Below, piece by piece: positions 38,575 to 55,706 of a DNA stretch of 64,000 bases. Under the pieces are notes generated by a model. It saw nothing but the letters and a program-made list of their open reading frames with translations. It had not been told where the DNA came from and ran no database searches. Position numbers and translations under genes: made by a program. The DNA comes from Desulfatiglandales bacterium. Its GTDB lineage: Bacteria > Desulfobacterota > DSM-4660 > Desulfatiglandales > Desulfatiglandaceae. The DNA is taken from positions 2,112,001 through 2,176,000 of the forward strand of contig OY762721.1 in NCBI GenBank assembly GCA_963666345.1. The letters are read 5' to 3'. Position 1 is the first letter of the stretch; the number at the start of each line of letters is the position of its first letter.

Positions 38575-40161
38575 TCAGGCTCTCTTGTGTATACGATTGA
38601 GATCTTGAGTCAATCTCTCCACAAGACCTAGTTGTACCCCTGCAGGGGTCTTTTTTATATCAGATTTCCCGGCAGCTTCTCTTTCGGCCTCAAGTTTCTC
38701 TCGTTCAATGCTTCTCTTAAGTCTGAGTGCCTGTAAATCCTCAAGTTCTTTTGCCTTTGCTTCTGCCTTGGCCTCTTCCGCCGCCTTTTTCGCGGCTTCT
38801 TCCTCGGCCTTCGCCCTGGCCTCCTGCTCGGCCTTTTTCGCGGCTTCCGCCTCAGCCTTTGCCCTGGCCTCTTCTGCCGCCTTTTTCGCGGCTTCTTCCT
38901 CGGCCTTCGCCCTGGCCTCCTGCTCGGCCTTTTTATCGGCTTCCACCTCAGCCTTGGGCTTTACCTCTTCTGCCTTTAACTCAGGTTCCGGTTTTAACTC
39001 TTTTTCAGGTTCTTTCTTAGGCTCTGCTTTCTTCTTAGGCTCGGCCTTTACTTCCTTTTTCTCTGCCTTTGGAGCCGCCTTTTTTTCAGCCTTTGCCTCC
39101 TTTTTGGCCTCTTCAAACTCAAGCACAGGCTCAGGCGAGACAGCCAGAAGGTCTATTTCCACTTGCTCCATGTTCTTTGAAATGCCGGCAACGCCGGTGG
39201 CCATTCCCCCGTTTATCATCAGTTCGATGAACGAACGCGTCAGCCTGACCGTTTCAGGATGTCTCAAAATGACTACGTCTGATCCACCAAGAAGATATGC
39301 CGTCGCTGCCGTCGCCTCCATAAGTATTGGGCGTCTTTCGGCATCCCCGAGCGTGGGGGCGTCCTGTTCGGACTGACCGGCTTCTTTGCACTTCCAAACC
39401 TCGTTTCCTACATTATTTATCATAGGTATCTGGAGTTTATCGTCTTCCTGAGTCAAAGCGGCCATTCTGATACGTTCCATTACCGAGTAGCTGTATTCCA
39501 TTCCGTATCCGAGGCCACCCGTGGTAGGATCTATGAGGATTTTCTCCTGCTTTACACCTAGATTTCCGAGAAGTATATTCAACTGTTTGGCTAGATTCAC
39601 GTCTATGGGGGAGCTTGCCACAATAACATGCCCGTAACCAAGTGCACTAGCCCCTATCCCCTTGTGATTGGCTTCCTCTACCGGTCCTAAACCGACATTC
39701 ATTCCCTCACACAATTCAGAAATCTTCTTTAGGACATCTTCATCTTTCTGATTATTTGCGGTTCCCCATACCACCAGGGGTACGTCAACGGCGTCTGCAA
39801 CCTCTTTTGCCGTTTTCGCCGCCTCCTCCGCACTTTTATCCATACCGTTCGGATCCGTACCCTTCAACTGCAGAACTATAAGATCCGCGCCATATTCCTC
39901 CACACACTTTTTCGCCCATTCTGAGGGGGAGGAAATAACATCCTTAAACGGCTCTATGGCAGCTTGAGGCCATTCCTGTGAAGGATCATAGTCCCAAATC
40001 TCCATGGCTATTTTAGGCGGATTTGGTGAAGACCCCTCAAAAAGATGAAACGCATAGGAGTCTGATCCTCCGACCGTAACCGCGGCACTTCCGCTTCCGA
40101 CCGTAGTAGTCCCTATTTTTCCTGAATAGGGTTGTTTCGGGATTTCAAAGGCCAATTTCAT
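38575..40161 (-). CDS. acsD: corrinoid Fe-S protein small subunit with long Ala/Glu/Lys-rich C-terminal extension
   Basis: FHLFEG, SPIDVNLAKQLN, DPTTGGLGYGMEYSYSVMERIR, LRHP. Confidence 0.92.
   Translation of the reverse strand: MKLAFEIPKQPYSGKIGTTTVGSGSAAVTVGGSDSYAFHLFEGSSPNPPKIAMEIWDYDPSQEWPQAAIEPFKDVISSPSEWAKKCVEEYGADLIVLQLKGTDPNGMDKSAEEAAKTAKEVADAVDVPLVVWGTANNQKDEDVLKKISELCEGMNVGLGPVEEANHKGIGASALGYGHVIVASSPIDVNLAKQLNILLGNLGVKQEKILIDPTTGGLGYGMEYSYSVMERIRMAALTQEDDKLQIPMINNVGNEVWKCKEAGQSEQDAPTLGDAERRPILMEATAATAYLLGGSDVVILRHPETVRLTRSFIELMINGGMATGVAGISKNMEQVEIDLLAVSPEPVLEFEEAKKEAKAEKKAAPKAEKKEVKAEPKKKAEPKKEPEKELKPEPELKAEEVKPKAEVEADKKAEQEARAKAEEEAAKKAAEEARAKAEAEAAKKAEQEARAKAEEEAAKKAAEEAKAEAKAKELEDLQALRLKRSIEREKLEAEREAAGKSDIKKTPAGVQLGLVERLTQDLNRIHKRA
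38765..38945. repeat. coding tandem repeat (48-nt units, 96-nt higher-order period)
   Basis: 38780-38838 is identical to 38876-38934; encodes KKAEQEARAKAEEEAA / KKAAEEARAKAEAEAA. Confidence 0.9.
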
Positions 40162-40847
40162 TACCTCCTTTTTATGAATTTAACCGTGAGATTGAAAAAG
40201 ATTTTCCTGTCGGTTCTCAAAATTTTAGAATACATAAACCGGCGTACTTCAAAAAAACAGGTTTTAATAAAAACCCCGCCCTCTTCTCTTTCAAACACGC
40301 AAAGACTCCGAGTTCAACCGGAAAAGACTTTAGAGGTTATCCTTGAACTTCACTTTTAAAGATATTCGATATCAGCAGCCGGCTACCGGCAAAAGAGATA
40401 AAGACTTCTTGCTCTGAAACCTTAAGAAGACGACCACCGCATCCAAAACTCTTCCTTTTTCGGATGGACGCTGCTTAAAATATGATTCAAAAGATCATAT
40501 CAAGGTAAAGGATTCCTTAAAAACAGGGATCTAAAAAGCTTATATAAAGACAGACGCACGACTGTTTATCAACTTAAAAATAAATAAAATATAGGAAACG
40601 GTATTATTTGATTTGCTAAAAAGAGGAAAGATCGGTTTAAGAGATTTTATTGCGAAGACCATAAGATTTAAACCTTTTAGCACTTATACCTCCTATCGTG
40701 GGTAGCCCCTCGATCGGGGTAACTGGTTTTAATATGTTCACTGCATCCATCTCCCTCGCTCTCGACAAAATTCTGAAAGGAGTTTCAGGAGCTCTCTAAG
40801 GTAGACTTAAAAATGATAAACTAAATGGCCGCCTTTTTCCGTCAGGT

Positions 40848-40877
40848 AACATAAAAAAAAGGGCAAATTATTGTCAA
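40848..40877 (-). promoter_or_regulatory. putative sigma70 promoter of the acs operon
   Basis: Minus strand TTGACA-18 bp-TATGTT. Confidence 0.45.
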
Positions 40878-40917
40878 GTAAATTCTAAAGTAATTTCAGG
40901 CAGTTTAAATTAGTTTA

Positions 40918-40964
40918 TTCCTATATATTGTATTAAATACTATTTTATGTACAAGATATAGATA
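40918..40964. promoter_or_regulatory. tandem NrdR-box-like sites
   Basis: Cores CTATATATTG (40921-40930) and CAAGATATAG (40952-40961), 31 bp apart. Confidence 0.5.
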
Positions 40965-41714
40965 TTAACGTCCAAGTATACCACGAAAAATAGAGTTCGC
41001 GGCAACAACCGCTGTGCTTTTTTCTCCCAACTGAGAGGTAGGTTTTCCCTCGAGATCATAATCGAAAACTACCGGGTCCTCAGGAATAATTCCCATCAAC
41101 TCTAAATTATATTTTTTTACCGCCTCTTCTATACGTGCCCTCTCCCCATCTTTTACCCTGTTTACGATCAAGGACTTACGTATGATATTAAGCTTCAGCT
41201 CCTCGGTCAACTCAACAATACGAGCCGCCGCCTGGATTCCCCTGATTGATGAGTCGGACACCACAATCAGATCATCGATATTGTCAGTCGTTAATCTACT
41301 GATATGTTCCATTCCCGCCTCATTATCCGTTACTACCATCTCATAATTCTTGATTAATTTCTCCAGATACATAGTAAGTAATGAATTTGCGGCACAATAG
41401 CAACCGGCGCCCTCCGGCCTTCCCATGACGATCAGGTCAAAACCGCTCGATTCGATCACCGCCTCCTGTAATTTCATTTCCATAAACACGTCTTTAGTCA
41501 TTCCGCTGGAAACACCCTTCTTCATCTCCTCCCTGGCATCGCCCAAGGTTTCACTGATCTCCAGGCCCAGCACCTCGTTAAGATTTGAATTTGCATCCGC
41601 ATCAACTGCCAAAACGGGTGTTCTACCTTCAGAAACCAGATACCTTATCAAAAAACCGGCCACAGTTGTTTTACCCGTTCCCCCCTTGCCGGCCAAGGCT
41701 ATAGAATAGCTCAT
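40965..41714 (-). CDS. cooC: CooC/AcsF nickel-insertion ATPase
   Basis: GKGGTGKTT, DADANSNL, GRPEGAGCYC, DNEAGMEHISR. Confidence 0.92.
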   Translation of the reverse strand: MSYSIALAGKGGTGKTTVAGFLIRYLVSEGRTPVLAVDADANSNLNEVLGLEISETLGDAREEMKKGVSSGMTKDVFMEMKLQEAVIESSGFDLIVMGRPEGAGCYCAANSLLTMYLEKLIKNYEMVVTDNEAGMEHISRLTTDNIDDLIVVSDSSIRGIQAAARIVELTEELKLNIIRKSLIVNRVKDGERARIEEAVKKYNLELMGIIPEDPVVFDYDLEGKPTSQLGEKSTAVVAANSIFRGILGR

Positions 41715-41817
41715 TTTCTCCTCCTGAACATATAGATTTTGGTTGCTATTTTTAAAGAATTTTTCTAGAATTTAAAGAACTTAAAACATTTCAGGGCTTA
41801 ACATATACACAACAATT

Positions 41818-43119
41818 ATGCCAACAAAGAATGATACATGGAAGATCATAACTAAACAGTTAAAGCGAGAGATTCCTCAATCGGAATTCAACACCTGGTT
41901 TTCCAACACAAGCATAAAAGAACTGGACACAAGCCTGGTTGTAATAGAAGTCCCGAATAAATTTGTCGCCAGATGGCTTAACGACCATTACCTTATTAAA
42001 ATAAGGACATGCTTTAAGGACTACCTAAAATATCCGCCTGAAATAAATTTTTGTTATGAGGGTCAAGAAAAATCTCCCGCACCCGGATCGGGCGGTAAAG
42101 ACGACAGGACCTTTTCCCATCTTGTTAATCCCAACATGCGTTTTGACAATTTTATTGTCTCAAACAGCAACAGATTTGCCTACTTTTCAGCCATGGAAGT
42201 AGTAAAAAATCCGGCAACTCTCTATAATCCATTATATGTTTTCAGTAAATTGAGTTTAGGTAAAACCCATTTACTAAATGCGGTTGTGAACCATTTGGCT
42301 GAAATAGATCCTTTTAAAAAGGTGAAATACGTTTCTTTCGAAAGATATTATACGGACCTTTCAATAGCAAAAAAAAATAACGCCCTGGACGAATTCAGGC
42401 GGGGATACTTTGACCTTGATTTTTTTCTTATCGACGATATAGACCACATAAGCGGTAGGGATAAATCCCAAGAAGAGCTGATAAACCTTTTCAATTATTT
42501 TTACAAGCTTAATAAACAGATTATCATAAGCGGGAAGACCTCTCCCGGACAAATAGTAAATCTCATGCCCCATTTCAGATCAAGACTGGAATGGGGTCTT
42601 CTTACTGAGATAGAAATACCGGATCTTGAAATGAAAACAGAATTTTTGAGGCAGAAAATGAAGGATGAGGACTTATACCTGCCGGAAGACGTTATTTTTT
42701 TTCTGTCAAACAGCACAAACGAGCTGAAGGGTATTAGTAATTACATCGTAACTCTAAAGACCTACGCCTCGCTCTACCAACATGAGATAGATATATCAAC
42801 CGTTAAATCAATTATAAAAAACAAACCCCCAAACAGGATCACCATCAAAGATATCCAAAAGGCCACTGCCGAATATTTTAATATCTCGCTGAGTGATCTT
42901 CTATCAGATAAAAAAAATAGGAAATTTTCGTATCCGAGACAGATTGCCGTCTACCTGTCGAGAAAACTAACTAAACTTTCTTATAAAGGTATAGGCCGAT
43001 CCTTTGGCAATAAGGATCATTCAACCATAATTTATGCTGTAAACCGGATAGATTCATCAAAAAACAACAACCAAAGTATTTTAAATGACATAAATAGGAT
43101 ACAAAACTTTTTCTCGTAG
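41818..43119 (+). CDS. dnaA: DnaA paralog 1 (dnaN-linked; degenerate AAA+ motifs)
   Basis: FNTWF, VPNKF, FDNFIV..SNRFA, YNPLY, LGKTHLL, LIDDI, RSRLEWGL, PRQIAVYL, DHSTIIYA. Confidence 0.9.
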   Translation: MPTKNDTWKIITKQLKREIPQSEFNTWFSNTSIKELDTSLVVIEVPNKFVARWLNDHYLIKIRTCFKDYLKYPPEINFCYEGQEKSPAPGSGGKDDRTFSHLVNPNMRFDNFIVSNSNRFAYFSAMEVVKNPATLYNPLYVFSKLSLGKTHLLNAVVNHLAEIDPFKKVKYVSFERYYTDLSIAKKNNALDEFRRGYFDLDFFLIDDIDHISGRDKSQEELINLFNYFYKLNKQIIISGKTSPGQIVNLMPHFRSRLEWGLLTEIEIPDLEMKTEFLRQKMKDEDLYLPEDVIFFLSNSTNELKGISNYIVTLKTYASLYQHEIDISTVKSIIKNKPPNRITIKDIQKATAEYFNISLSDLLSDKKNRKFSYPRQIAVYLSRKLTKLSYKGIGRSFGNKDHSTIIYAVNRIDSSKNNNQSILNDINRIQNFFS

Positions 43120-43249
43120 TTAACTCCCATCACTGAGCATGCCGAAGGGTGGGACTGAAAAGAACAAAGGAACTCAAGTAAAGACAATGGATCCCGCAGA
43201 TATTGGATGAAAGGAGAATTTCGGTCTTGAACCGGGCTGACCAAAATTT

Positions 43250-43475
43250 TATTAGGACAGATGTGGAATTTTTTTTAATAACTTTTTTATTAATGATCAA
43301 AGAACGGTAAATTGGAAAGTTATTCCACTTCAGTGTTTGAATATTCAAAACCAACCGGGAATTCAATTAATAACTCTTTTAGTATTTACAACAAAATACC
43401 CGGGTAATATACAAATCAACACAGACTTTTATTATTATTATATTTATAAAAGATAAAATAATATTAAACAGATGT
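43250..43475. other. probable oriC (dnaA-dnaN intergenic region)
   Basis: Degenerate boxes (TGTGGAATT 43262-43270, TATTCCACT 43321-43329, TCAACACAG about 43416), then (TTA)n trio-like tract and AT-rich DUE about 43427-43468; canonical position. Confidence 0.6.
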
Positions 43476-43503
43476 TAGAAAACAGATTGGAGCGGAGGCA
43501 AAA

Positions 43504-44619
43504 ATGGAAATAAAAATTGATAGAGAAATCTTTTTAAAAAGTATCTCCAGATTTCAAAGTATAATAGAGAAAAGAAGTAACATGCCTATTCTTTCAACTA
43601 TCCTTCTGACTGCAACTGATTCTGTTGTGCGTATTTCCGCAACTGATCTTGAAATCGGATTTCAGCAGATACTTGAAGCTGAAATTATTGGTGAAGGCAG
43701 TATAACGGTATCAGGCAGGAAGCTTTTCGAAATTCTGAAAGAAAGCAGGGCGAAAATATTTCATATAAAAGAAAAAGAAAACAACTGGGTTTTTCTTTCC
43801 GATGACGTTGCACAATTTAATCTGTCCTGCCTTCCTGCAGACGAATACCCTACCTTTGTTGAACCGATGGATGTAAATATGGTTGAAATAGAAGGAAATA
43901 TCCTCAGCGAAATGATCAATAAAACAATATATGCCGTGACAATGGAGGATGCAGGATTTAAGCTTTCGGGAATATTTACTGAAAAGACTGAATTTGAAGG
44001 GAATTCTTTTTTAAGGATGGTTGCAACCGACGGTCACAGGTTATCTTTGATTGATAAAACATTTTCTAATATTGATAAACTGGAATTAGGATCAGGCGTT
44101 GTTATTCCTAAGAAGGGAATGTCGGAAATTAATAAACTTGCCTCAGACGGCGGCACTGTTATGCTAGGTTTCAAGGATAAAAACTGTGTTGTTAAAAAAG
44201 ATAATACCCTCCTGATAATTAGGCTGCTTGAAACAAAATTTCCGGATTATCATGCCGTAATACCGAAAGATTCTAAATTCAAGATAGATGTAGACAGGGT
44301 ACTTATAAACGATGCCATGAGAAAAATGCTTATACTTAGCAATGAGCGGTATCGGGCGGTAAAAATTATATTGGATAAGGATCTAATGGAGTTGTTTTCA
44401 ACAAATCCTGATCTGGGAGAGGCTCATGAAAGCATCCAGGTAAAGTATAACGATGAACGAATGGAAATAGGTTTCAATCCCAGATATTTTATCGACACTC
44501 TCCAGGCTATGGAAAGTGATCTGATAAGTTTGAGCTTTTTAGACAGTCTCAAACCTTGCGTGATAAGAGGTCAAGTAGATGAAGGTTTTGTGGGGCTTAT
44601 GATGCCTATGAGGTTATAG
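43504..44619 (+). CDS. dnaN: DNA polymerase III beta clamp
   Basis: MPILS, ATDLEI, VATDGHRL, FPDY, IGFNPRY, MMPMRL. Confidence 0.96.
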   Translation: MEIKIDREIFLKSISRFQSIIEKRSNMPILSTILLTATDSVVRISATDLEIGFQQILEAEIIGEGSITVSGRKLFEILKESRAKIFHIKEKENNWVFLSDDVAQFNLSCLPADEYPTFVEPMDVNMVEIEGNILSEMINKTIYAVTMEDAGFKLSGIFTEKTEFEGNSFLRMVATDGHRLSLIDKTFSNIDKLELGSGVVIPKKGMSEINKLASDGGTVMLGFKDKNCVVKKDNTLLIIRLLETKFPDYHAVIPKDSKFKIDVDRVLINDAMRKMLILSNERYRAVKIILDKDLMELFSTNPDLGEAHESIQVKYNDERMEIGFNPRYFIDTLQAMESDLISLSFLDSLKPCVIRGQVDEGFVGLMMPMRL

Positions 44620-47082
<2,463 letters not shown>

Positions 47083-47112
47083 AAAAACAAGAAATTGGTC
47101 TGGAGAATTTTG

Positions 47113-49533
47113 ATGATTAGCGATTTTAAAATTGATTCCGTAAATATAGAAGATGAAATGAAGAAGTCCTATCTTGAATACTCAATGAGTGTCATTGTAG
47201 GAAGAGCACTGCCCGATGTAAGAGACGGTCTGAAGCCTGTTCATAGAAGAGTCTTATATGGAATGCATGAGTTGAAAAATTTTTATAACAGGCCTTTCAA
47301 GAAGTCTGCAAGGGTGGTGGGTGACGTTATAGGTAAATATCATCCTCATGGAGATGCGGCTGTTTATGACACCATAGCCAGAATGGCACAGGATTTCTCT
47401 ATGAGATATACCATCGTGGACGGTCAGGGGAACTTCGGATCCGTAGATGGAGACCCCCCTGCTGCTATGCGTTATACCGAAGTAAGAATGACTAAGCTGG
47501 CTCAGGAATTTTTGAGTGACATAGAAAAGGAAACCGTAGACTTCAGGCCGAACTATGATGAATCTCTAAGTGAACCGGTTATTCTACCGACCAGGGTACC
47601 AAACCTGCTTGTGAACGGCTCTTCCGGAATAGCCGTCGGAATGGCTACGAATATTCCGCCTCATAATCTTGGGGAAATTTGCCGGGCCGTTATCAAGATG
47701 ATAGATGATCCGGATGTAACTTTAAAGGAATTGATGGGAATGGTGCCGGGGCCCGATTTTCCTACGGCAGGTTTCATATTGGGGAAAAGAGGGATACAGG
47801 AAGCGTATAAAACGGGAAGAGGTATAATAAAAATAAGGGCCCGAGCATTTGTTGAAAAGTTAGCTCATAACAAGGAGAGAATTGTTGTATCGGAGATCCC
47901 CTACCAGGTTAACAAGGCAAAACTTCTTGAAAAGATAGCCGAACTTGTAAGGGATAAGAAAATTGAAGGAATTTCAGATATCAGGGATGAATCCGACCGA
48001 GACGGAATGAGAATTGTTGTAGATGTGAAGCGTGAAGGAAAGGCCCTTGTGATTCTAAACAGACTCTATAAGTACACGCAGATGGAGACATCTCTGGGAA
48101 TTATTCTGCTGGCCATTGCCAACAACAGACCTGAGGTTTTGACGCTTAAAAAAATAATCAAATATTTCATAAGCCACAGGCGTGAGATAATAATTCGGAG
48201 AACAATTTATGATTTGAAAAAGGCCGAAGAGCGCGCGCATATACTGGAAGGGCTTAAAAAGGCTTTAGATTTTCTCGATGATATAATTGAACTAATTCGA
48301 TCTTCTACAGATCCAGGAGAAGCAAAGGCAAGACTCATCAGGGAATTTGAATTTTCCGAAATACAGGCGCAGGCGATACTTGACATGCGTCTTCAGCGAT
48401 TAACCGGACTGGAAAGGGAAAAGATAAATGCCGAGTACCAGGATCTCATAAAAAGCATCTCAAAATTAAAGGCTATCTTGGGTAGTCAGGCTATGGTTTC
48501 GGAGATCATAAAGGGCGAAATGAAGGAAATTGAATCAAAACATGGAAATGAGAGAAGGACAGAAATACTTGAGGATGCTGATGAATTAGAATTAGAGGAT
48601 CTTATCGCCAATGAGGATATGGTGGTTACAATAAGCCACGAAGGATATATCAAACGAAATCCGATAAGCCTTTATCGTGCACAGAGAAGAGGAGGTAAGG
48701 GATTAACCGGGGTAAAGACCAAGGCCGAAGATTTCGTGGAACTGCTGTTTGTGGCCTCCTCCCATGATTATCTTATGTTTTTCACAAATAAGGGAAGGGT
48801 GTACTGGAAAAAGGTCCATGAAGTACCGGAGGGCAGTCGGATGGCCCGTGGAAAGGCCATTGTGAATCTTCTTGATCTCCAGAAGGGAGAAAAGGTCGCA
48901 ACGACGCTTGCCGTGAAGAACTTCGAGGAAGGAAAATACGTGGTAATGGCCACAAAGAACGGGATTGTAAAGAAAACTGAACTGAAATCCTATAGTCATC
49001 CCAGGATCACCGGGATTTTAGGAATAAAGATACGAGAAGATGATGAACTTATTGCCGTTCGTGTTACAAGCGGGGAACAGGATATTTTTCTGACGACGCA
49101 AATGGGTAAATCGCTTAGATTCAATGAATCACAGCTTCGAAGTATGGGCCGGGTCGCCTCCGGAAACATAGGGATAAGACTCGGAAAAAGGGATGCGGTG
49201 GTCGGAATGGAAGTCCTTGAGGAGGGAGCTACCATCCTTACTGTAACGGAAAACGGTTTTGGAAAGAGAACTAAGACCGAGGAATATAGGTGCCAGGCAA
49301 GGGGTGGAAAGGGAATATTTACAATTAAGACCAGCCAAAGAAATGGACTGGTAGTATCCTCATACCGGGTAACAGATCAAGACGAATTAATGATAATAAC
49401 AGGTCATGGAAAGATTATTCGCTTGAGGGTGGGGGATATATCGATAATTGGAAGAAATACGCAGGGAGTTACGCTTATCAACCTGGAGGAGGGAGAAAAG
49501 GTTGTGGGTGTGGCAAAGCTGATGGATGATTAG
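47113..49533 (+). CDS. gyrA: DNA gyrase subunit A
   Basis: [33 protein letters not shown] GyrA box. Confidence 0.97.
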
Positions 49534-49558
49534 AGACCTGAAGTAAGAGAAGAATGTT

Positions 49559-50578
49559 ATGAATGAAAATAGACGGAATATCGCTGTTATAGGAGCGGGC
49601 AGTTGGGGAACCGCTCTTGGAAATCTGCTGGCGGAGAAGGGGTTTAATGTCGATCTGTGGGTAAGGGAGGATGATGTTTTTCATCAGATACGCAAAGAGA
49701 GGGAAAACAAGGTGTTTCTGCCCGGTATAAGGCTCTCAGATGGTTTAAATGCGGTAAATAGCTATGAGGAGGCCCTACTGGGTAAAGAACTTGTTTTGAT
49801 TGTGGTTCCTTCTCATGTTTTCAGAAAGGTATTGAGGGAAATGAAGCCGTATGTGAACAACGGGATGTCCCTTATCACTGCGACAAAAGGTATTGAAAAC
49901 GAATCGCTTGAAGTAATGTCCGGTGTTGCATCAGCTATTTTGGGTAATGAGTATCTGGAGAAGTTTTCATGTCTGTCAGGACCAAGCTTTGCAAAAGAGG
50001 TGGTAAGAAGGTTGCCCACCGCCGTTACTATAGCATGCAGGGATGCAAAGCATGCCAAGCGAATGCAGGAGGTTTTCTACACTGAACATTTCCGTGTGTA
50101 TGTAAGTGACGATATCATGGGTGTGCAGCTTGGTGGCGCATTGAAAAATGTTGTAGCTATCGCGGCCGGGGCTTCAGACGGTCTTAGATTCGGGTATAAT
50201 GCCAGAGCGGCACTGATAACAAGGGGGTTGGCGGAAATATCCAGGCTGGGTGTGTCAATGGGGGCTAATCCGCTTACGTTTGCAGGATTGGCAGGAATGG
50301 GTGATCTTGTGCTTACATGTACCGGGGATCTCAGCAGAAACCGGAGCGTGGGGATAAAGATCGGTGAAGGCATGTCAATTGAAGAGATCACCGGAAGGAT
50401 GAAAATGGTTGCAGAGGGAGTAAAAACTACAAAATCTGCATTTGAACTGGGCAGAAAAATGGGAGTGGATATGCCGATAATAAATCAGGTTTACAATATA
50501 ATCTATGAGAAGAAAAAACCTGAAAAGGCTGTAAGAGATCTGATGAAGAGAAAATTGAAGGCGGAGATTGAGTCTTGA
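49559..50578 (+). CDS. gpsA: NAD(P)H-dependent glycerol-3-phosphate dehydrogenase
   Basis: GAGSWGTA, TKGIE, SGPSFA, GALKN, GDLVLTC..SRN. Confidence 0.95.
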   Translation: MNENRRNIAVIGAGSWGTALGNLLAEKGFNVDLWVREDDVFHQIRKERENKVFLPGIRLSDGLNAVNSYEEALLGKELVLIVVPSHVFRKVLREMKPYVNNGMSLITATKGIENESLEVMSGVASAILGNEYLEKFSCLSGPSFAKEVVRRLPTAVTIACRDAKHAKRMQEVFYTEHFRVYVSDDIMGVQLGGALKNVVAIAAGASDGLRFGYNARAALITRGLAEISRLGVSMGANPLTFAGLAGMGDLVLTCTGDLSRNRSVGIKIGEGMSIEEITGRMKMVAEGVKTTKSAFELGRKMGVDMPIINQVYNIIYEKKKPEKAVRDLMKRKLKAEIES

Positions 50579-50648
50579 TGAGATTTTAATAGGGCTGTTC
50601 ATGATTCAGGTTTGAATAAAATAGGAATAACAGGTACAGAGGAATTAT

Positions 50649-50840
50649 ATGGCAGCCATAAAACCAAAAGGGGAAAAGATCCGGCAGGCGGTAAAATGGA
50701 TATCGGATAAGCTGAAATCGGGACAAAACGATACTGTGTTGACCCTGGTGACAGAGGCCTCATTAAAGTATAACCTTTCACCCAGGGAAGAGGACTATCT
50801 TCTGAGTTTTTATAAGAAGAATACTAATGATGAAAAATAA
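50649..50840 (+). CDS. small hypothetical protein (63 aa)
   Basis: GAGG RBS, amphipathic helical sequence, fills the gpsA-dnaA2 gap. Confidence 0.7.
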   Translation: MAAIKPKGEKIRQAVKWISDKLKSGQNDTVLTLVTEASLKYNLSPREEDYLLSFYKKNTNDEK

Positions 50841-50929
50841 TTACGCAAGGAAATTAGGCGCTTATATTAGACTTGGGGCTGTTTTTCAAGGAGAATGAAA
50901 TAACTAGATTTTCAATGAAGCAAGGGAAA

Positions 50930-52276
50930 TCAATTTCTGGAATTATGAAGCCTTTTACTTAAAAACTGAACCTGCCTTCTTGTCTTCTCATCTTTTTTCA
51001 TATTAGCTTCGATTAGTTCTGAAGCGTATAACACAGTGGAATGACTGCGATTAATAGTTGCGCCTATTTCTTCAAGGGTCTCGTCCGTATACCTTCTGGA
51101 TAGGTAGGCACAGATATTTCTCGGTAATACGTATATCTTTTTGCGGGATTTGGAGCTGACCATTTCAGGGTCAATGTTGTAGTATTTTGAAACCAGCTGT
51201 TTGACATCCTGGCTGGATATAGAGGCCTCTGAAGTTACCAGGCAGTCTACGACTTCCTTGGCAAGGTCGAGATCTATTTTTACATTAAGAAGGGCGGATT
51301 TGGCACTGAGGGAATTAAGGGCACTTTCCATTTGGCGGACATCCCTTGTAAGTCTGCCGGCAATGAAGTGGATTATCTCGTCGGCGAGATTCAGGTTCTT
51401 TTCAAAGGCCTTTTCAGATAATATCTTTACCCTTGTTTCATAATCGGGGTTATCTATGGTGCTGACCAGGCCGCATGTAAGCCTTGATGAGAGCTCTTTT
51501 GACATGCGGGGGATATCCTTTGGGGGAAGAGAACTGGTGAAGATTAATTTTTTATTGTCATTGCAAAGGGCATCAAGGGTATATCCCAGTTCCACCTGAG
51601 TTTTTTCTTTTCCGCTCAGAAAATGGATCTCTTCCAAAAGCAGTACATCACAGGAACGCCGATACCTGTTTTTGAATTCATCGATGCGGTTGTTTCTGAT
51701 AGAAGAAATCATTTCGTTGGTGAAATCCTCTGCAGTTATGTAGAAAACCTTGGCCTTTGGGTTGATGTGCATGATTTTGTTACCCACGGCCTGAGAAAGA
51801 TGGGTCTTCCCCAGTCCGGTTTTGGCCAGCATTAGCAGGGTATTGTAATGCCGGGATTGGCTGCGGGCAAGCTCCTGGGAGGCTGAATAGGCGAATTCAT
51901 TTGACGGTCCGACTATAAATCGGTCAAAGGTGAAGCCCTTGTTGAAGAATTTGAAGCTGGAGCCTGAAGTCTTAAAATTGGGGAGAGTAAGTTGCTTTGG
52001 GCCTTTGGAGTCGGAAGGGTTGGGATTTGATTTGATTTTACGATCTACATCGAAGCACAGATCCAAATGTCGATTGGTTGTGGAATTTAATTTATCCAGG
52101 ATAAGTTCATAATAATTCTGCTTGACCCAGTTGCAGGAAAATTTATTCGGAAATCCAAGAGTTAATGTATTGCCGTCATTAGATACAAAAGATATCGGTC
52201 GTATCCAGAGTGAGAAGGTGTTTTTCGGGATTTCATTGCTAAGCTGGTTCTTTATCTCCTCCCAACAGACCTTCAT
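50930..52276 (-). CDS. dnaA: DnaA paralog 2 (with QLTLP clamp-binding-like motif)
   Basis: FSLWI, FPNKF, FTFDRFIVGPSNEFA, TGLGKTHL, SGKEKTQ, SSRL..GL, DVRQMES, RSHSTVLYA. Confidence 0.9.
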   Translation of the reverse strand: MKVCWEEIKNQLSNEIPKNTFSLWIRPISFVSNDGNTLTLGFPNKFSCNWVKQNYYELILDKLNSTTNRHLDLCFDVDRKIKSNPNPSDSKGPKQLTLPNFKTSGSSFKFFNKGFTFDRFIVGPSNEFAYSASQELARSQSRHYNTLLMLAKTGLGKTHLSQAVGNKIMHINPKAKVFYITAEDFTNEMISSIRNNRIDEFKNRYRRSCDVLLLEEIHFLSGKEKTQVELGYTLDALCNDNKKLIFTSSLPPKDIPRMSKELSSRLTCGLVSTIDNPDYETRVKILSEKAFEKNLNLADEIIHFIAGRLTRDVRQMESALNSLSAKSALLNVKIDLDLAKEVVDCLVTSEASISSQDVKQLVSKYYNIDPEMVSSKSRKKIYVLPRNICAYLSRRYTDETLEEIGATINRSHSTVLYASELIEANMKKDEKTRRQVQFLSKRLHNSRN

Positions 52277-52827
52277 CTATTTCTCCCGGTTTTTAACAGA
52301 ATTAACGTTTATGTTGAAAAGTGAATTGAAATGAATCAAACAGGATGTTAATCGTATTTATACGAATGGGTGTTTAGATGTCAAAGCTCGTTGATGAGAG
52401 GCAAAAGTTATGTGAGATACTCTTTTTGACATAAGGTAACGTATTCGGCTCACAAGGGAAATCGGCAGTGTCGGTGTAAGTCACCGAGAAGGTGACGTTT
52501 TTTAGAATATAAAATTGGACCAAAAAACAATTACTTAAGCAAAAGAGCTGCGTTGTTTAAAAAAATATCCACATTGGAGATCATTAAAATACTACGATTT
52601 ACGCAGTTTTTTAATGATATTCATTTTCTTATAGGGGATATTTTGGATAATAAAATGATAGTGATATATGGTGAAAGTTAGGAAAGAAAATTGCATGAGC
52701 TGTAACTTATTTATATTGCAAGGTAAAAATAGAATAAAAAGAGCCTGCTGCCGGAGGTTAACTCTATTTTAAAAATTATATTAAAAAACAAAGAGGTGCA
52801 TTTTCTGTAAATGGGGGAAAATTGCTG

Positions 52828-53754
52828 ATGAACAAGAAAAGGATAGTTGTAATTGCGGGAGGTTGGTCTAAAGAAAGGGAGATTTCTCTTGATAGCGGTA
52901 GGGCTGTGTACGATGCCATCGATAGAAATCGTTACGATGTAATGATGTGCGACCCGTTGAATGGGCTTGAAAGGATAATGGAAGGTAGGGATTCCATTGG
53001 ACTTGCCTTTGTGTTGCTTCATGGGCGGAGCGGTGAGGACGGATCGATGCAAGGGTTTCTTGAGACTTTGGGGATTCCCTACGTCGGGTCGGGGGTTCTT
53101 GCAAGTGCGATGGCAATGAACAAACATAAGGCAAAACAGATATTCAGGGCTAACGATATTAAGGTCGCCGATGACATTTTAGTGAGAAAAGATGAACAGG
53201 TAACTGCTTGTAATATATTTAAAATGCTTGGTGAAACGGTCGTAACAAAGCCCGTAACTGAAGGATCAAGCATCGGCATGTCTATCTGTAGAAGCGAAGA
53301 AGAGTTTGACAGGGGATTTGAGATGGCCGCGGGACACGGAAGTGAGGTTATGATCGAATCGTACATAAAGGGAAGAGAGGTGACATGCTGTATCCTTGGA
53401 AATTCAAAACTTGAAGCCCTGCCTATAGTGGAGATTGCACCTGGAGAAGGGCACCTCTTCTTTGACTACGAGGCAAAATACACCAGCGGAGTCGCGGCGG
53501 AAATCTGCCCGGCCCGGATTGATGAAAAAATTGCTGAAGGGGTGAAAAAAATTGCTCGAAAAGCTCATGTAGCGCTTTGCTGCAAGGTGTGGAGCAGGAC
53601 AGACATGATTATTAGGGGAGATGATATTTTTGTGCTTGAGACAAATACGATCCCTGGAATGACTACCAACAGCCTGTTTCCGCTCGCTGCTAGAACGGGG
53701 GGTGTGCCATTTCCTCAACTCGTTGAAATACTTATTGAATTATCAATAGAATAA
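52828..53754 (+). CDS. ddl: D-alanine--D-alanine ligase
   Basis: GGWSKEREISL, LHGRSGEDG, EGSSIG, FDYEAKY, ETNTIPGMT. Confidence 0.95.
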   Translation: MNKKRIVVIAGGWSKEREISLDSGRAVYDAIDRNRYDVMMCDPLNGLERIMEGRDSIGLAFVLLHGRSGEDGSMQGFLETLGIPYVGSGVLASAMAMNKHKAKQIFRANDIKVADDILVRKDEQVTACNIFKMLGETVVTKPVTEGSSIGMSICRSEEEFDRGFEMAAGHGSEVMIESYIKGREVTCCILGNSKLEALPIVEIAPGEGHLFFDYEAKYTSGVAAEICPARIDEKIAEGVKKIARKAHVALCCKVWSRTDMIIRGDDIFVLETNTIPGMTTNSLFPLAARTGGVPFPQLVEILIELSIE

Positions 53755-54088: not shown

Positions 54089-54856
54089 ATGGCAAAGGTA
54101 ATCTCTATTTCTAATCAAAAGGGAGGGGTAGGCAAGACTACCACCGCCATAAATCTCTCGGCATCTCTTGCTGCGGCCGAAAAATCGTGTCTGCTTATTG
54201 ACTGCGATCCTCAAGGCAACGCCACCACCGGCCTGGGCATTGACAGATCCGGAATAAAGGCGGGGCTCTATGATCTTTTATTGGGAGGGCTGTCTCTGAG
54301 TGATGTTCTTTTGGACACGGCCCTTTCAGGCTTGCATCTCATAGCTGCAACCTCGGATCTGGTAGGAGCCGAGGTTGAAATGTCTTCGCTAAGGGATAAA
54401 GAGTTTTTACTTAAAAGGCACCTGATCAAATATGAGAATGAATTTGATTACGTATTTATCGACTGCCCGCCATCTCTGGGGTTTTTGACGGTGAATGCCA
54501 TGACAGCGGCCGGTTCAGTGATTGTGCCTCTGCAATGTGAATATTATGCCCTGGAGGGGCTTTCCCAGTTGCTGAGAACGATAAAGGCACTGAAACACTC
54601 GCTTAATCCGGGTTTGCGGCTTTCAGGAATTCTGCTCACCATGTATGATCAGCGTAACAATCTTTCAAAACAGGTAGCTGAAGAGGTACGGAATCATTTC
54701 AAGTCGACCGTTTTCAATACTGTTGTCCCTCGCAATGTAAGGTTGAGCGAGGCGCCCAGCCATGGCAAACCGATATTGCTTTATGATATACGTTCAACCG
54801 GCGCTCAAAGTTACCTGGAACTGGCAAAAGAGTTAATATGCAGGGAAATAGGATAA
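54089..54856 (+). CDS. parA: chromosome partitioning ATPase ParA/Soj
   Basis: NQKGGVGKTT, DPQGNAT, IDCPPSLG, QCEYYALEG, PRNVRLSEAPSHG. Confidence 0.96.
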   Translation: MAKVISISNQKGGVGKTTTAINLSASLAAAEKSCLLIDCDPQGNATTGLGIDRSGIKAGLYDLLLGGLSLSDVLLDTALSGLHLIAATSDLVGAEVEMSSLRDKEFLLKRHLIKYENEFDYVFIDCPPSLGFLTVNAMTAAGSVIVPLQCEYYALEGLSQLLRTIKALKHSLNPGLRLSGILLTMYDQRNNLSKQVAEEVRNHFKSTVFNTVVPRNVRLSEAPSHGKPILLYDIRSTGAQSYLELAKELICREIG

Positions 54857-54857
54857 G

Positions 54858-55706
54858 ATGAAAAAAAGGAAGGCGTTAGGCAAGGGGCTTTCTGCTATAA
54901 TACCTGAAGCGGAAGGTTTCGAGGAAAAGACGGGACAGTTTTTTCTTTGCCCCATAGAGCTTATCGAACCAAATCCCGATCAGCCCAGGAAGGATTTTTC
55001 TGAACCTGAGCTTCAGGAGATGGTAAATTCGGTGAAGGAAAAGGGTGTTATTACCCCGCTGCTTGTCAGTAGAAAAGATAATATATACCAGCTTATTGCC
55101 GGAGAGAGAAGGTGGCGCGCAGCCCAGCGGGGAGGGCTCGATCGCGTCCCGGTTATAGTGAAAGAGGCGAGTCCGACAGAGGTCTTGGAGCTTGCACTTA
55201 TCGAGAATATTCACAGAAAAGATCTTAATCCGATCGAGGAGGCCCTGGCTTTTAAAAAACTTATTACTGACGCGGGTATTACCCAGGATGAGTTGGCAAA
55301 ACGCATCGGTAAAGAGCGATCCACCGTTACGAACATCATGAGGCTTCTCAGCCTGCCCTTGTCAATGCAGGAAGATGTGATAAACGGACGGCTGTCCATG
55401 GGGCATGCAAGGGTGCTGGCAGGATTAAAGAGCAGCGAGGAACGGATCAGTCTCAGGGATGAAATAATCAACAGGGACCTGTCCGTAAGGCAGGCGGAAT
55501 CGCTGGCAAAAAAAGCGAAGTCCGGTAGTCCCAAAGGGGGTAAACCCGATTCAGAAAAGGATTATTATTTTAGATCTCTGGCGGATAATCTCAAGAGATC
55601 TCTGGGAACCAAAGTGGAAATAAGGAGAAACGGCAAAAGGGGGCGGATAGTCGTGCACTATTATTCCGATGATGAGCTGGACAGGTTGCTTGAGCTTCTA
55701 TGTTGA
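54858..55706 (+). CDS. parB: chromosome partitioning protein ParB/Spo0J
   Basis: LGKGLSA, PNPDQPRK, IAGERRWRA, ALIEN, HTH, MGHAR. Confidence 0.96.
   Translation: MKKRKALGKGLSAIIPEAEGFEEKTGQFFLCPIELIEPNPDQPRKDFSEPELQEMVNSVKEKGVITPLLVSRKDNIYQLIAGERRWRAAQRGGLDRVPVIVKEASPTEVLELALIENIHRKDLNPIEEALAFKKLITDAGITQDELAKRIGKERSTVTNIMRLLSLPLSMQEDVINGRLSMGHARVLAGLKSSEERISLRDEIINRDLSVRQAESLAKKAKSGSPKGGKPDSEKDYYFRSLADNLKRSLGTKVEIRRNGKRGRIVVHYYSDDELDRLLELLC

Follow-up and report, generated by a model that had tools for sequence, protein, structure and literature searches.

Two full-length DnaA paralogs bracket dnaN-gyrB-gyrA-gpsA in a Desulfatiglandales bacterium: a candidate main initiator and a candidate auxiliary DnaA

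Introduction

Bacterial replication is commonly ascribed to one universal initiator, DnaA, whose nucleotide-switch residues are near-invariant. Here we examine a 64,000-nucleotide stretch of DNA from a Desulfatiglandales bacterium (hereafter the window; bases 2,112,001-2,176,000 of a single-contig genome of 4.16 Mb, labelled G000) that carries two full-length dnaA genes. These genes point toward each other and bracket the genes dnaN-gyrB-gyrA-gpsA. We refer to the dnaN-linked gene as dnaA1 and to its product as paralog 1 (P1), and to the ddl-linked gene as dnaA2 and to its product as paralog 2 (P2). The locus raises the question of which of the two proteins initiates replication, and what the other one is kept for.

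41818..43119, + strand: dnaA1, encoding P1 (433 amino acids), dnaN-linked, apparently of canonical-lineage descent and with a relaxed AAA+ core
50930..52276, - strand: dnaA2, encoding P2 (448 amino acids), assigned to a second DnaA clade ('clade B') that spans the phylum

An initial annotation, made from the letters of the window, had proposed that neither copy is canonical and that the two may consequently work as a hetero-oligomer or as an initiator/regulator pair. Our comparative analysis instead points to an asymmetric arrangement, to which we assign a probability of roughly 0.55, wherein P2 would be the main initiator and P1 an auxiliary DNA-binding DnaA that is useful but dispensable. 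Throughout, G-, L-, f- and g-numbers are labels for genomes, loci, families and genera, with f1 denoting the window's own family and f2-f6 the other sampled families of its order.

Results

Two complete DnaA proteins and no third

Both proteins had been described as having all four DnaA domains, and this description is borne out by their open reading frames (ORFs) and by profile matches. The Pfam domains DnaA_N, Bac_DnaA and Bac_DnaA_C are all present in P1 and in P2, and both proteins exceed the cut-off (343.9 bits) of the NCBIfam DnaA equivalog model TIGR00362, with scores of 392.2 and 421.7 bits, respectively. Each also aligns end to end with the canonical DnaA of PDB entry 8btg (446 amino acids), at 275 bits for P1 and 300 bits for P2, and the four-domain architecture is common to all three. 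The two paralogs are 28% identical to each other.

A search of the whole genome with protein profiles, for the third canonical dnaA or hda that the initial annotation had suggested looking for, revealed neither a third DnaA nor an Hda. Hda (or HdaA) is a short paralog of DnaA that consists of the AAA+ domain only, and its role depends on its arginine finger rather than on any initiator activity of its own. With 97.3 bits (P1) and 88.6 bits (P2), both window proteins fall below the 194.8-bit cut-off of the Hda model TIGR03420, and both possess domains I and IV. The remaining weak matches to the DnaA model come from 15 identical frames of 247 amino acids (for example L003-L008; 26.6 bits each, in the AAA+ part), which we read as candidate helper ATPases encoded by a multicopy element of the IS21 type, given that DnaA cross-matches models of IstB.

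P1 and P2 belong to separate lineages

The initial annotation had called for a DnaA phylogeny across the phylum, and the two trees that we built concur in placing P1 and P2 in separate, old lineages. The first came from a quick maximum-likelihood search under LG+G4 and comprises 110 of the 148 rows, the order having been randomly subsampled. In it, P2 falls in a clade of 42 rows, to which DnaAs from 16 further families (sole or second copies) belong as well, with a support of 99 in the Shimodaira-Hasegawa-like approximate likelihood-ratio test (SH-aLRT), and P1 belongs to a clade of 15 rows (support 98) among the dnaN-linked lineages. The second tree (55 rows, LG+C20+F+G4), from which the long or odd rows L144, L134, L061, L060, L135, L062 and L063 were left out, recovers clade B with 27 rows (support 99) and the P1 group with nine rows (support 100) on a stem of 0.99 changes per site. 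Here P1 lies inside a 22-row group together with 13 canonical dnaN-linked DnaAs (support 94, not starred). Judging from these trees, P1 goes back to the canonical dnaA-dnaN gene and P2 is a member of an old, second lineage of DnaA that is widespread in the phylum; the pair is evidently ancient rather than the product of a recent duplication.

Profile searches across the phylum separate the same two groups. A profile built from 20 P1-type proteins (A1) matches most sole DnaAs of other families at 400-475 bits but gives P2 of the window only 335 bits, and a profile built from 34 P2-type proteins (A2) selects a different set of genomes. Among the 144 matched genomes outside the order, there are 53 whose best E-value against A2 is better than that against A1 by 20 or more orders of magnitude; two further genomes outside the order had no match. 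At 40 more loci across the phylum, P2-like genes never adjoin dnaN and sometimes adjoin ddl, and the other dnaA genes adjoin dnaN. Both lineages occur within one genome in f1, f6, f19, f71 and f73, and many families have one or the other alone. A broad contig search with the P1 alignment was unselective, returning DnaAs of many phyla, and only one of the 80 loci listed looked P1-like (L156, 42% identity).

Two metagenome-assembled genomes (MAGs) of the family carry an extra, very canonical DnaA, at L062 (G070:C191) and L063 (G114:C75), with 575 and 523 bits to TIGR00362. The former groups with Escherichia coli in the tree and probably lies on a contaminant contig; the latter is long-branched and unplaced.

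The two lineages differ at nucleotide-switch residues

For the comparison of motifs, residues are numbered as in E. coli K-12 DnaA (L155), which was aligned by MAFFT with 147 DnaA frames of relatives. The residues that the initial annotation had assigned by eye prove correct in this alignment. P1 has the P-loop SKLSLGKT, which lacks the double glycine of the E. coli protein, and the Walker B pair DD; it carries K at the sensor-I aspartate D269 and H at R281, lacks V211 and R227, and keeps the arginine finger R285 together with R407 and the D-H-S of its DHST signature in domain IV. The statement that P1 lacks the sensor-II arginine (R334) also holds, with the nuance that a lysine occupies this position, on which the HMMER alignment to 8btg and MAFFT column 334 concur. 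P2 has the P-loop AKTGLGKT, E-E in place of D235/D236, S at D269 and E at R281, and it keeps R285 and R334. The equivalent of R281 is absent from both proteins, as had been claimed. In domain IV of P2, a one-residue deletion precedes R-S-H-S-T, and S-H-S stands in place of D433-H434-T435, so that D433 is replaced by S while R407 and H434 are kept. The Walker A lysine, R285, R407 and H434 are common to P1, P2 and the E. coli protein.

Canonical sole DnaAs of the phylum are near-invariant at G172, G173, G175, E204, V/I211, R227, D235, D236, D269 (42/42), R281 (41/42), R285 and R334. Clade-B proteins, whether they are the sole DnaA or not, keep E204, V/I211, R227, R285 and R334 and lack D269 and R281. 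Their Walker B motif has E at position 235 and mostly reads E-E, the P-loop A-K-T-G-L-GKT is conserved within the clade, and the sensor-II arginine is invariant there. Since these traits are common to clade-B proteins that serve alone, the E-E Walker B motif and the absent sensor-I aspartate of P2 are best read as clade-wide characters, not decay.

The P1-type proteins present a different picture. The 31 sequences keep K178, D235, R285, R407 and H434, and 30 of them keep D236 (the remaining one has DN); D433 is kept as well. By contrast, G172, G173, G175, E204, V211 (mostly S or T), R227 and R281 are variable or changed. Lysine replaces R334 in 28 of the 31 sequences, and D269 is retained by 9 of 12 proteins in f6 and by none of 19 in f1. 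The front of the P-loop is hypervariable among P1 orthologues, and GK[TS] is invariant in the P1 and P2 groups alike. Every tabulated sequence of the P1 type (31) and of the P2 type from within the order (46) has the arginine finger. Such changes do not accompany every dnaN-linked copy that coexists with clade B. Family f19 resembles the window in having one dnaN-linked copy and one clade-B copy, but its dnaN-linked copy, unlike P1, keeps every canonical residue, as does that of f71; the dnaN-linked copy of G260 (f73) is degenerate in a manner similar to P1.

Relaxation of P1 is confined to the AAA+ domain

Mean pairwise identities by domain were computed for 16 genomes that have both genes and, for canonical DnaAs, between families.

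AAA+ core: P1 0.40, P2 0.68, canonical 0.67
Lid: P1 0.35, P2 0.54, canonical 0.52
Domain I: P1 0.37, P2 0.42, canonical 0.29
Domain IV: P1 0.48, P2 0.53, canonical 0.46

These values indicate that the relaxation of P1 is specific to its AAA+ domain, and that domains I and IV remain constrained. Ratios of nonsynonymous to synonymous substitution rates (dN/dS; Nei-Gojobori, seven close genome pairs) are 0.07-0.22 for P1 and 0.06-0.26 for P2, where three P2 frames were taken from stop to stop, which inflates their dN. Both genes are under purifying selection, and the possibility raised in the initial annotation that one or both copies decay neutrally does not hold.

These data bear on the proposal that P1 is a decaying relic on its way to being lost. 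P1 evolves faster than P2 (in genus g9 its dN is about threefold higher), several of its catalytic-site residues are gone, and the gene has disappeared from four sister families, as described below. Against this stand not only the low dN/dS values but also the uninterrupted, near-full-length frame of all 31 P1-type genes examined, from two families, along with the invariance of K178 and R285, the near-invariance of the DD pair and the conservation of domains I and IV. We regard decay toward loss as the least probable of the explanations weighed here.

P2 serves alone in sister families

The genes that surround the two paralogs permit their gain and loss to be followed among relatives.

38575..40161, - strand: cdhD, CO dehydrogenase/acetyl-CoA synthase delta subunit (Pfam CdhD, 1.5e-43), the conserved left flank of the P1 locus
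40965..41714, - strand: CooC/MinD-type P-loop ATPase (Pfam CbiA, AAA_31, NifH-family), divergent from dnaA1
43504..44619, + strand: dnaN, beta sliding clamp (three Pfam DNA_pol3_beta domains)
44650..47082, + strand: gyrB (Pfam DNA_gyraseB, Toprim, HATPase_c)
47095..49533, + strand: gyrA (Pfam DNA_topoisoIV, DNA_gyraseA_C)
49559..50578, + strand: gpsA (Pfam NAD_Gly3P_dh_N, NAD_Gly3P_dh_C), convergent with dnaA2
52822..53754, + strand: ddl (Pfam Dala_Dala_lig_N, Dala_Dala_lig_C), divergent from dnaA2 and a conserved neighbour of clade-B genes

The ATPase at 40965..41714 has weak MinD-like matches below cut-off in NCBIfam, and 'cooC-like' is a label from context. In a sample of 40 relatives from the order, whose DnaA frames were split by score into P1 and P2 types, P1-type genes always occur in the arrangement cdhD<-cooC | dnaA->dnaN->gyrB wherever the flank is long enough, and P2-type genes are always divergent from ddl and converge on gpsA where this can be seen. 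The complete convergent layout is repeated on single contigs of G015 and G018, and in further genomes with both genes on one contig they are linked, convergent and 8-35 kb apart. Counts by family, for the 39 genomes from which full-length copies were retrieved, are as follows.

f1 (23 genomes): both types 13, P1 only 4, P2 only 6
f6 (4 genomes): both types 3, P1 only 0, P2 only 1
f2, f3, f4 and f5 (12 genomes): both types 0, P1 only 0, P2 only 12

The P2 type is thus present in every sampled family of the order and is the sole DnaA in four of them. A class-level sample likewise gives exactly one DnaA match in 20/20 genomes of f2 (3), f3 (11), f4 (5) and f5 (1), and this single DnaA is of the P2 type wherever its sequence was retrieved. 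In G030 (f2; L251, C16:14000-25000), the arrangement cdhD<-cooC | ->dnaN->gyrB->gyrA is intact, with about 190 bp in the slot where dnaA1 would lie, which is a clean loss of P1.

This distribution is difficult to reconcile with an obligate split-function initiator, in which P1 and P2 must co-assemble and each supplies what the other lacks. The motifs do look complementary, with DD and no sensor-II arginine in P1, EE and a sensor-II arginine in P2, and an arginine finger in both, and the genes are linked and convergent on the contigs that they share. Nevertheless, clade B with the same motifs is the sole DnaA in f2-f5 and in many other families, and the slot of P1 is cleanly empty in G030; hence P2 needs no P1, and an obligate hetero-oligomer is improbable. 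The argument that two non-canonical copies must complement each other accordingly fails for P2, whose peculiarities are clade-wide and which serves alone, and a milder version, an initiator with an auxiliary or regulatory partner, fits P1, with its relaxed AAA+ domain and constrained domains I and IV.

Loss in the opposite direction is harder to establish. Five f1 MAGs (94-99% complete) have no P2 match, but in four of these a contig end falls directly behind gpsA or 80-860 bp upstream of ddl. We have not counted such 'P1-only' MAGs as P2 losses, with G007 and G044 as possible exceptions, because the contigs end in or near the position of dnaA2 and because congeners (G017, and G056 with a duplicated 5' segment) show a dnaA2 that is cut by contig ends. 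Of the sampled genomes of the family, the four that are assembled in one or two contigs (G000, G063, G067 and G078) all carry both genes or more.

Additional pieces of dnaA2 were seen in some relatives. At a distance of 400 kb from its intact copy, G078 has an extra P2-type copy that is split among three frames (L278, C1:1773914-1777852), and in G056 two contigs (C48 and C4; L275, L279) start with the near-identical first 570 nt of dnaA2 and differ upstream. Such extra pieces may explain why the contigs of MAGs so frequently end inside dnaA2. A further group of ORFs, of 265-340 amino acids, in G002 (L258, L260-L262) and G007 (L259), matches the P2 profile only at positions 347-446, the C-terminal DNA-binding part, with 28-45 bits.

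GC skew places the origin at the P1 locus

41818..43119 is followed, and 50930..52276 preceded in its own reading direction, by an AT-rich spacer.

43120..43503: dnaA1-dnaN spacer, 32% G+C, at the GC-skew minimum; candidate oriC/unwinding region
52277..52821: dnaA2-ddl spacer, with TTGACA-type hexamers at about 52381-52432 and a terminator-like hairpin at 52480-52505 (+ strand)

The minimum of the genome-wide cumulative GC skew falls at 2,154,000-2,155,000, which corresponds to about 42-43.2 kb of the window and hence to dnaA1 and the dnaA1-dnaN spacer, and the maximum, at 135,000, is roughly opposite. The skew is strongly positive from 43 to 53 kb, even across dnaA2, which lies on the - strand. 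Because there is a single skew minimum and the skew is positive through dnaA2, we place the origin at the P1 locus rather than between dnaA2 and ddl.

We also considered whether the two genes might mark two origins, with the dnaA1-dnaN spacer served by P1 and the dnaA2-ddl spacer by P2. Both spacers are equally AT-rich (32% G+C each), and in two single-contig f3 genomes the only dnaA, of the P2 type, is far from dnaN (153 kb away in G108, 226 kb in G125), so that origin function may travel with dnaA2. For G108, the skew over 400 kb around dnaN and dnaA is noisy and monotonic and did not locate the origin. The sharp, single skew minimum near 43 kb of the window speaks against a second origin, as do runs of at least three TAA/TAG units, which resemble the DnaA-trio element of Bacillus subtilis. 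Such runs occur in 7/29 orthologous dnaA1-dnaN spacers and in 0/27 dnaA2-ddl spacers; all seven lie just upstream of dnaN, on the strand that carries TAATAATAATAA in the window (- strand, 43431-43442). Their excess over shuffled spacers is weak (seven observed, against a shuffle mean of 3.3 and maximum of 8). We consider two origins slightly less probable still than obligate co-assembly of the two proteins.

The dnaA2-ddl spacer has features of its own. About 100 nt upstream of dnaA2, two hexamers of the TTGACA type stand back to back, TGTCAAAG near 52381 and TTTTTGACA near 52424, and TTTGACA or its complement is found in 25/27 orthologous spacers. The + strand stretch that follows ends in a terminator-like hairpin, GTCACCGAGAAGGTGAC, and a T run (52480-52505), and pieces of this stretch (GGAAAtyGGC ... 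CCGAGAAG) repeat in several relatives. The stretch from 52378 to 52505, which is without an Rfam match, may represent a short divergent transcript.

More generally, an Rfam scan of 40-56 kb of the window (E up to 1) gave nothing at gathering score. A weak match to AsdA inside dnaA2 (29.8 bits, against a threshold of 52) was set aside as probable dnaA coding similarity. Between gpsA and the end of dnaA2 lies an ORF of 63 codons (50649-50840, + strand), for which a Pfam scan at E up to 0.1 gave no match. The G+C content falls to 0.36-0.40 over cooC-dnaA1-dnaN-gyrB (40000-48000), compared with 0.45-0.52 across most of the window. Downstream of ddl are the partition genes.

54089..55706, + strand: parA-parB (Pfam AAA_31/CbiA; ParB_N/HTH_ParB/ParB_C)

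Discussion

A main initiator and an auxiliary DnaA

Taken together, these observations are most consistent with P2 as the main, ATP-driven initiator of this bacterium, and we assign this role to P2 because it keeps residues that we take to serve hydrolysis, single-strand binding and oligomer contact in E. coli DnaA. Its profile would be that of a working initiator: it occurs in every sampled family of the order, it seems sufficient alone in many relatives, and it is well conserved. P1 appears to be useful and yet dispensable, because selection has kept it in two families over dozens of genera and four other families have deleted it. Its AAA+ core has apparently been released from normal constraint within the order, with domain I, domain IV, the Walker A lysine, the DD pair and the arginine finger retained, such that its nucleotide switch and its grip on single strands would no longer be held to the canonical standard. 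Most likely, P1 acts as an auxiliary protein that binds DnaA boxes at or near oriC and dnaN, where it might serve as a non-hydrolysing anchor, as a co-assembling subunit, or as a DnaA-box-binding regulator.

Several observations weigh against this assignment of roles. First, it is P1, and not P2, that lies at the skew minimum beside dnaN, the usual place of a working initiator. Second, DnaA boxes are not conspicuous at the locus. With at most one mismatch to the E. coli-type consensus TTATCCACA, the window holds 22 matches where 14.7 are expected, with no cluster at dnaA1 or dnaA2; the densest 800-bp windows of the genome hold four matches, and none of these is near the locus. Perfect boxes number 48 in the genome and 0 in the window. 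A de novo search, using repeated 9-mers in four spacers and enrichment of 7-9-mers over 29 + 27 orthologous spacers, likewise found no box-like motif. Third, the functions given here to E204, V211, R227, D269, R281 and R334 are those of the E. coli protein and are presumed for P1 and P2. Fourth, both trees are quick ones with SH-aLRT values only and no bootstraps, the backbone of the dnaN-linked lineages is unresolved, and the root is E. coli alone.

The final points concern the two MAGs mentioned above as possible exceptions. G007 (95% complete) has the only contiguous gpsA-birA-ddl stretch without dnaA2 (birA by TIGR00121), and in G044 (98% complete) gpsA-birA is followed by the contig end; no P2-type gene was found in either. 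P1 of both genomes has the same relaxed motifs as other P1-type proteins. If P2 is truly absent from these organisms, then P1 alone can initiate.

Such a capacity would be expected if the two proteins were redundant initiators, either of which can fire the single origin, with the pair retained to make initiation robust or to adjust it to particular conditions (for instance through different nucleotide-switch properties). In addition to G007 and G044, where the P1 motif pattern is unchanged in the apparent absence of P2, this explanation can draw on the occurrence of either lineage as the only DnaA in parts of the phylum, and on the purifying selection that acts on both genes, whose products both keep domain I, the Walker A lysine, the arginine finger and domain IV. 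It does not readily account for an AAA+ core in P1 that is much less constrained than that of sole canonical DnaAs (0.40 versus 0.67) and that varies at E204, V211 and R227. Moreover, the case of G007 and G044 is insecure, given that the other 'P1-only' MAGs represent assembly breaks inside dnaA2 and that the 4/4 family genomes in one or two contigs have both genes or more. We therefore hold redundancy to be rather unlikely.

A more specific version of the arrangement that we favor, with P2 as initiator and P1 as auxiliary, can be put forward tentatively. In the order, the displaced canonical copy may have been remodelled into an ATPase-relaxed subunit at the origin, as a partner of the replacement clade-B lineage, which may itself be undescribed so far and appears to have replaced canonical DnaA repeatedly. 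P1 could then be an anchor, or it could regulate by donating its arginine finger. A role that depends on the arginine finger, as in Hda, is of the kind that P1 could have; the difference is that P1 and P2 are full length and score below the Hda cut-off. Reading by eye, we noted no clamp-binding motif in P1.

Relation to known systems and significance

Duplicated DnaA initiators are already known. A preprint states that two complete dnaA genes are occasionally found in genomes of Desulfovibrionia and Chlamydiales (bioRxiv 10.1101/2025.08.05.668638). The relaxed dnaN-linked copy and the two-clade pattern described here appear to be new. A full-text literature search, with subscription journals outside its coverage, found neither reciprocal loss nor a pair of DnaA clades described for this phylum, and no account of a dnaN-linked copy whose AAA+ domain is relaxed.

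One practical consequence is a warning for origin prediction and for the annotation of MAGs in this phylum, where dnaA2 is often cut by contig ends. With regard to biology, these bacteria seem to offer a natural system in which two old DnaA lineages coexist and replace each other by reciprocal loss. The positions at which the P1 and P2 lineages differ are exactly those that govern nucleotide affinity and hydrolysis in E. coli. The locus may help to test which residues of DnaA initiation truly cannot do without. It is also a possible natural case of an initiator that works with a full-length, DnaA-derived accessory factor in bacteria that lack Hda. If P1 has indeed been remodelled in the manner proposed above, the pair would be a natural instance of labour divided between two proteins within the DnaA orisome.

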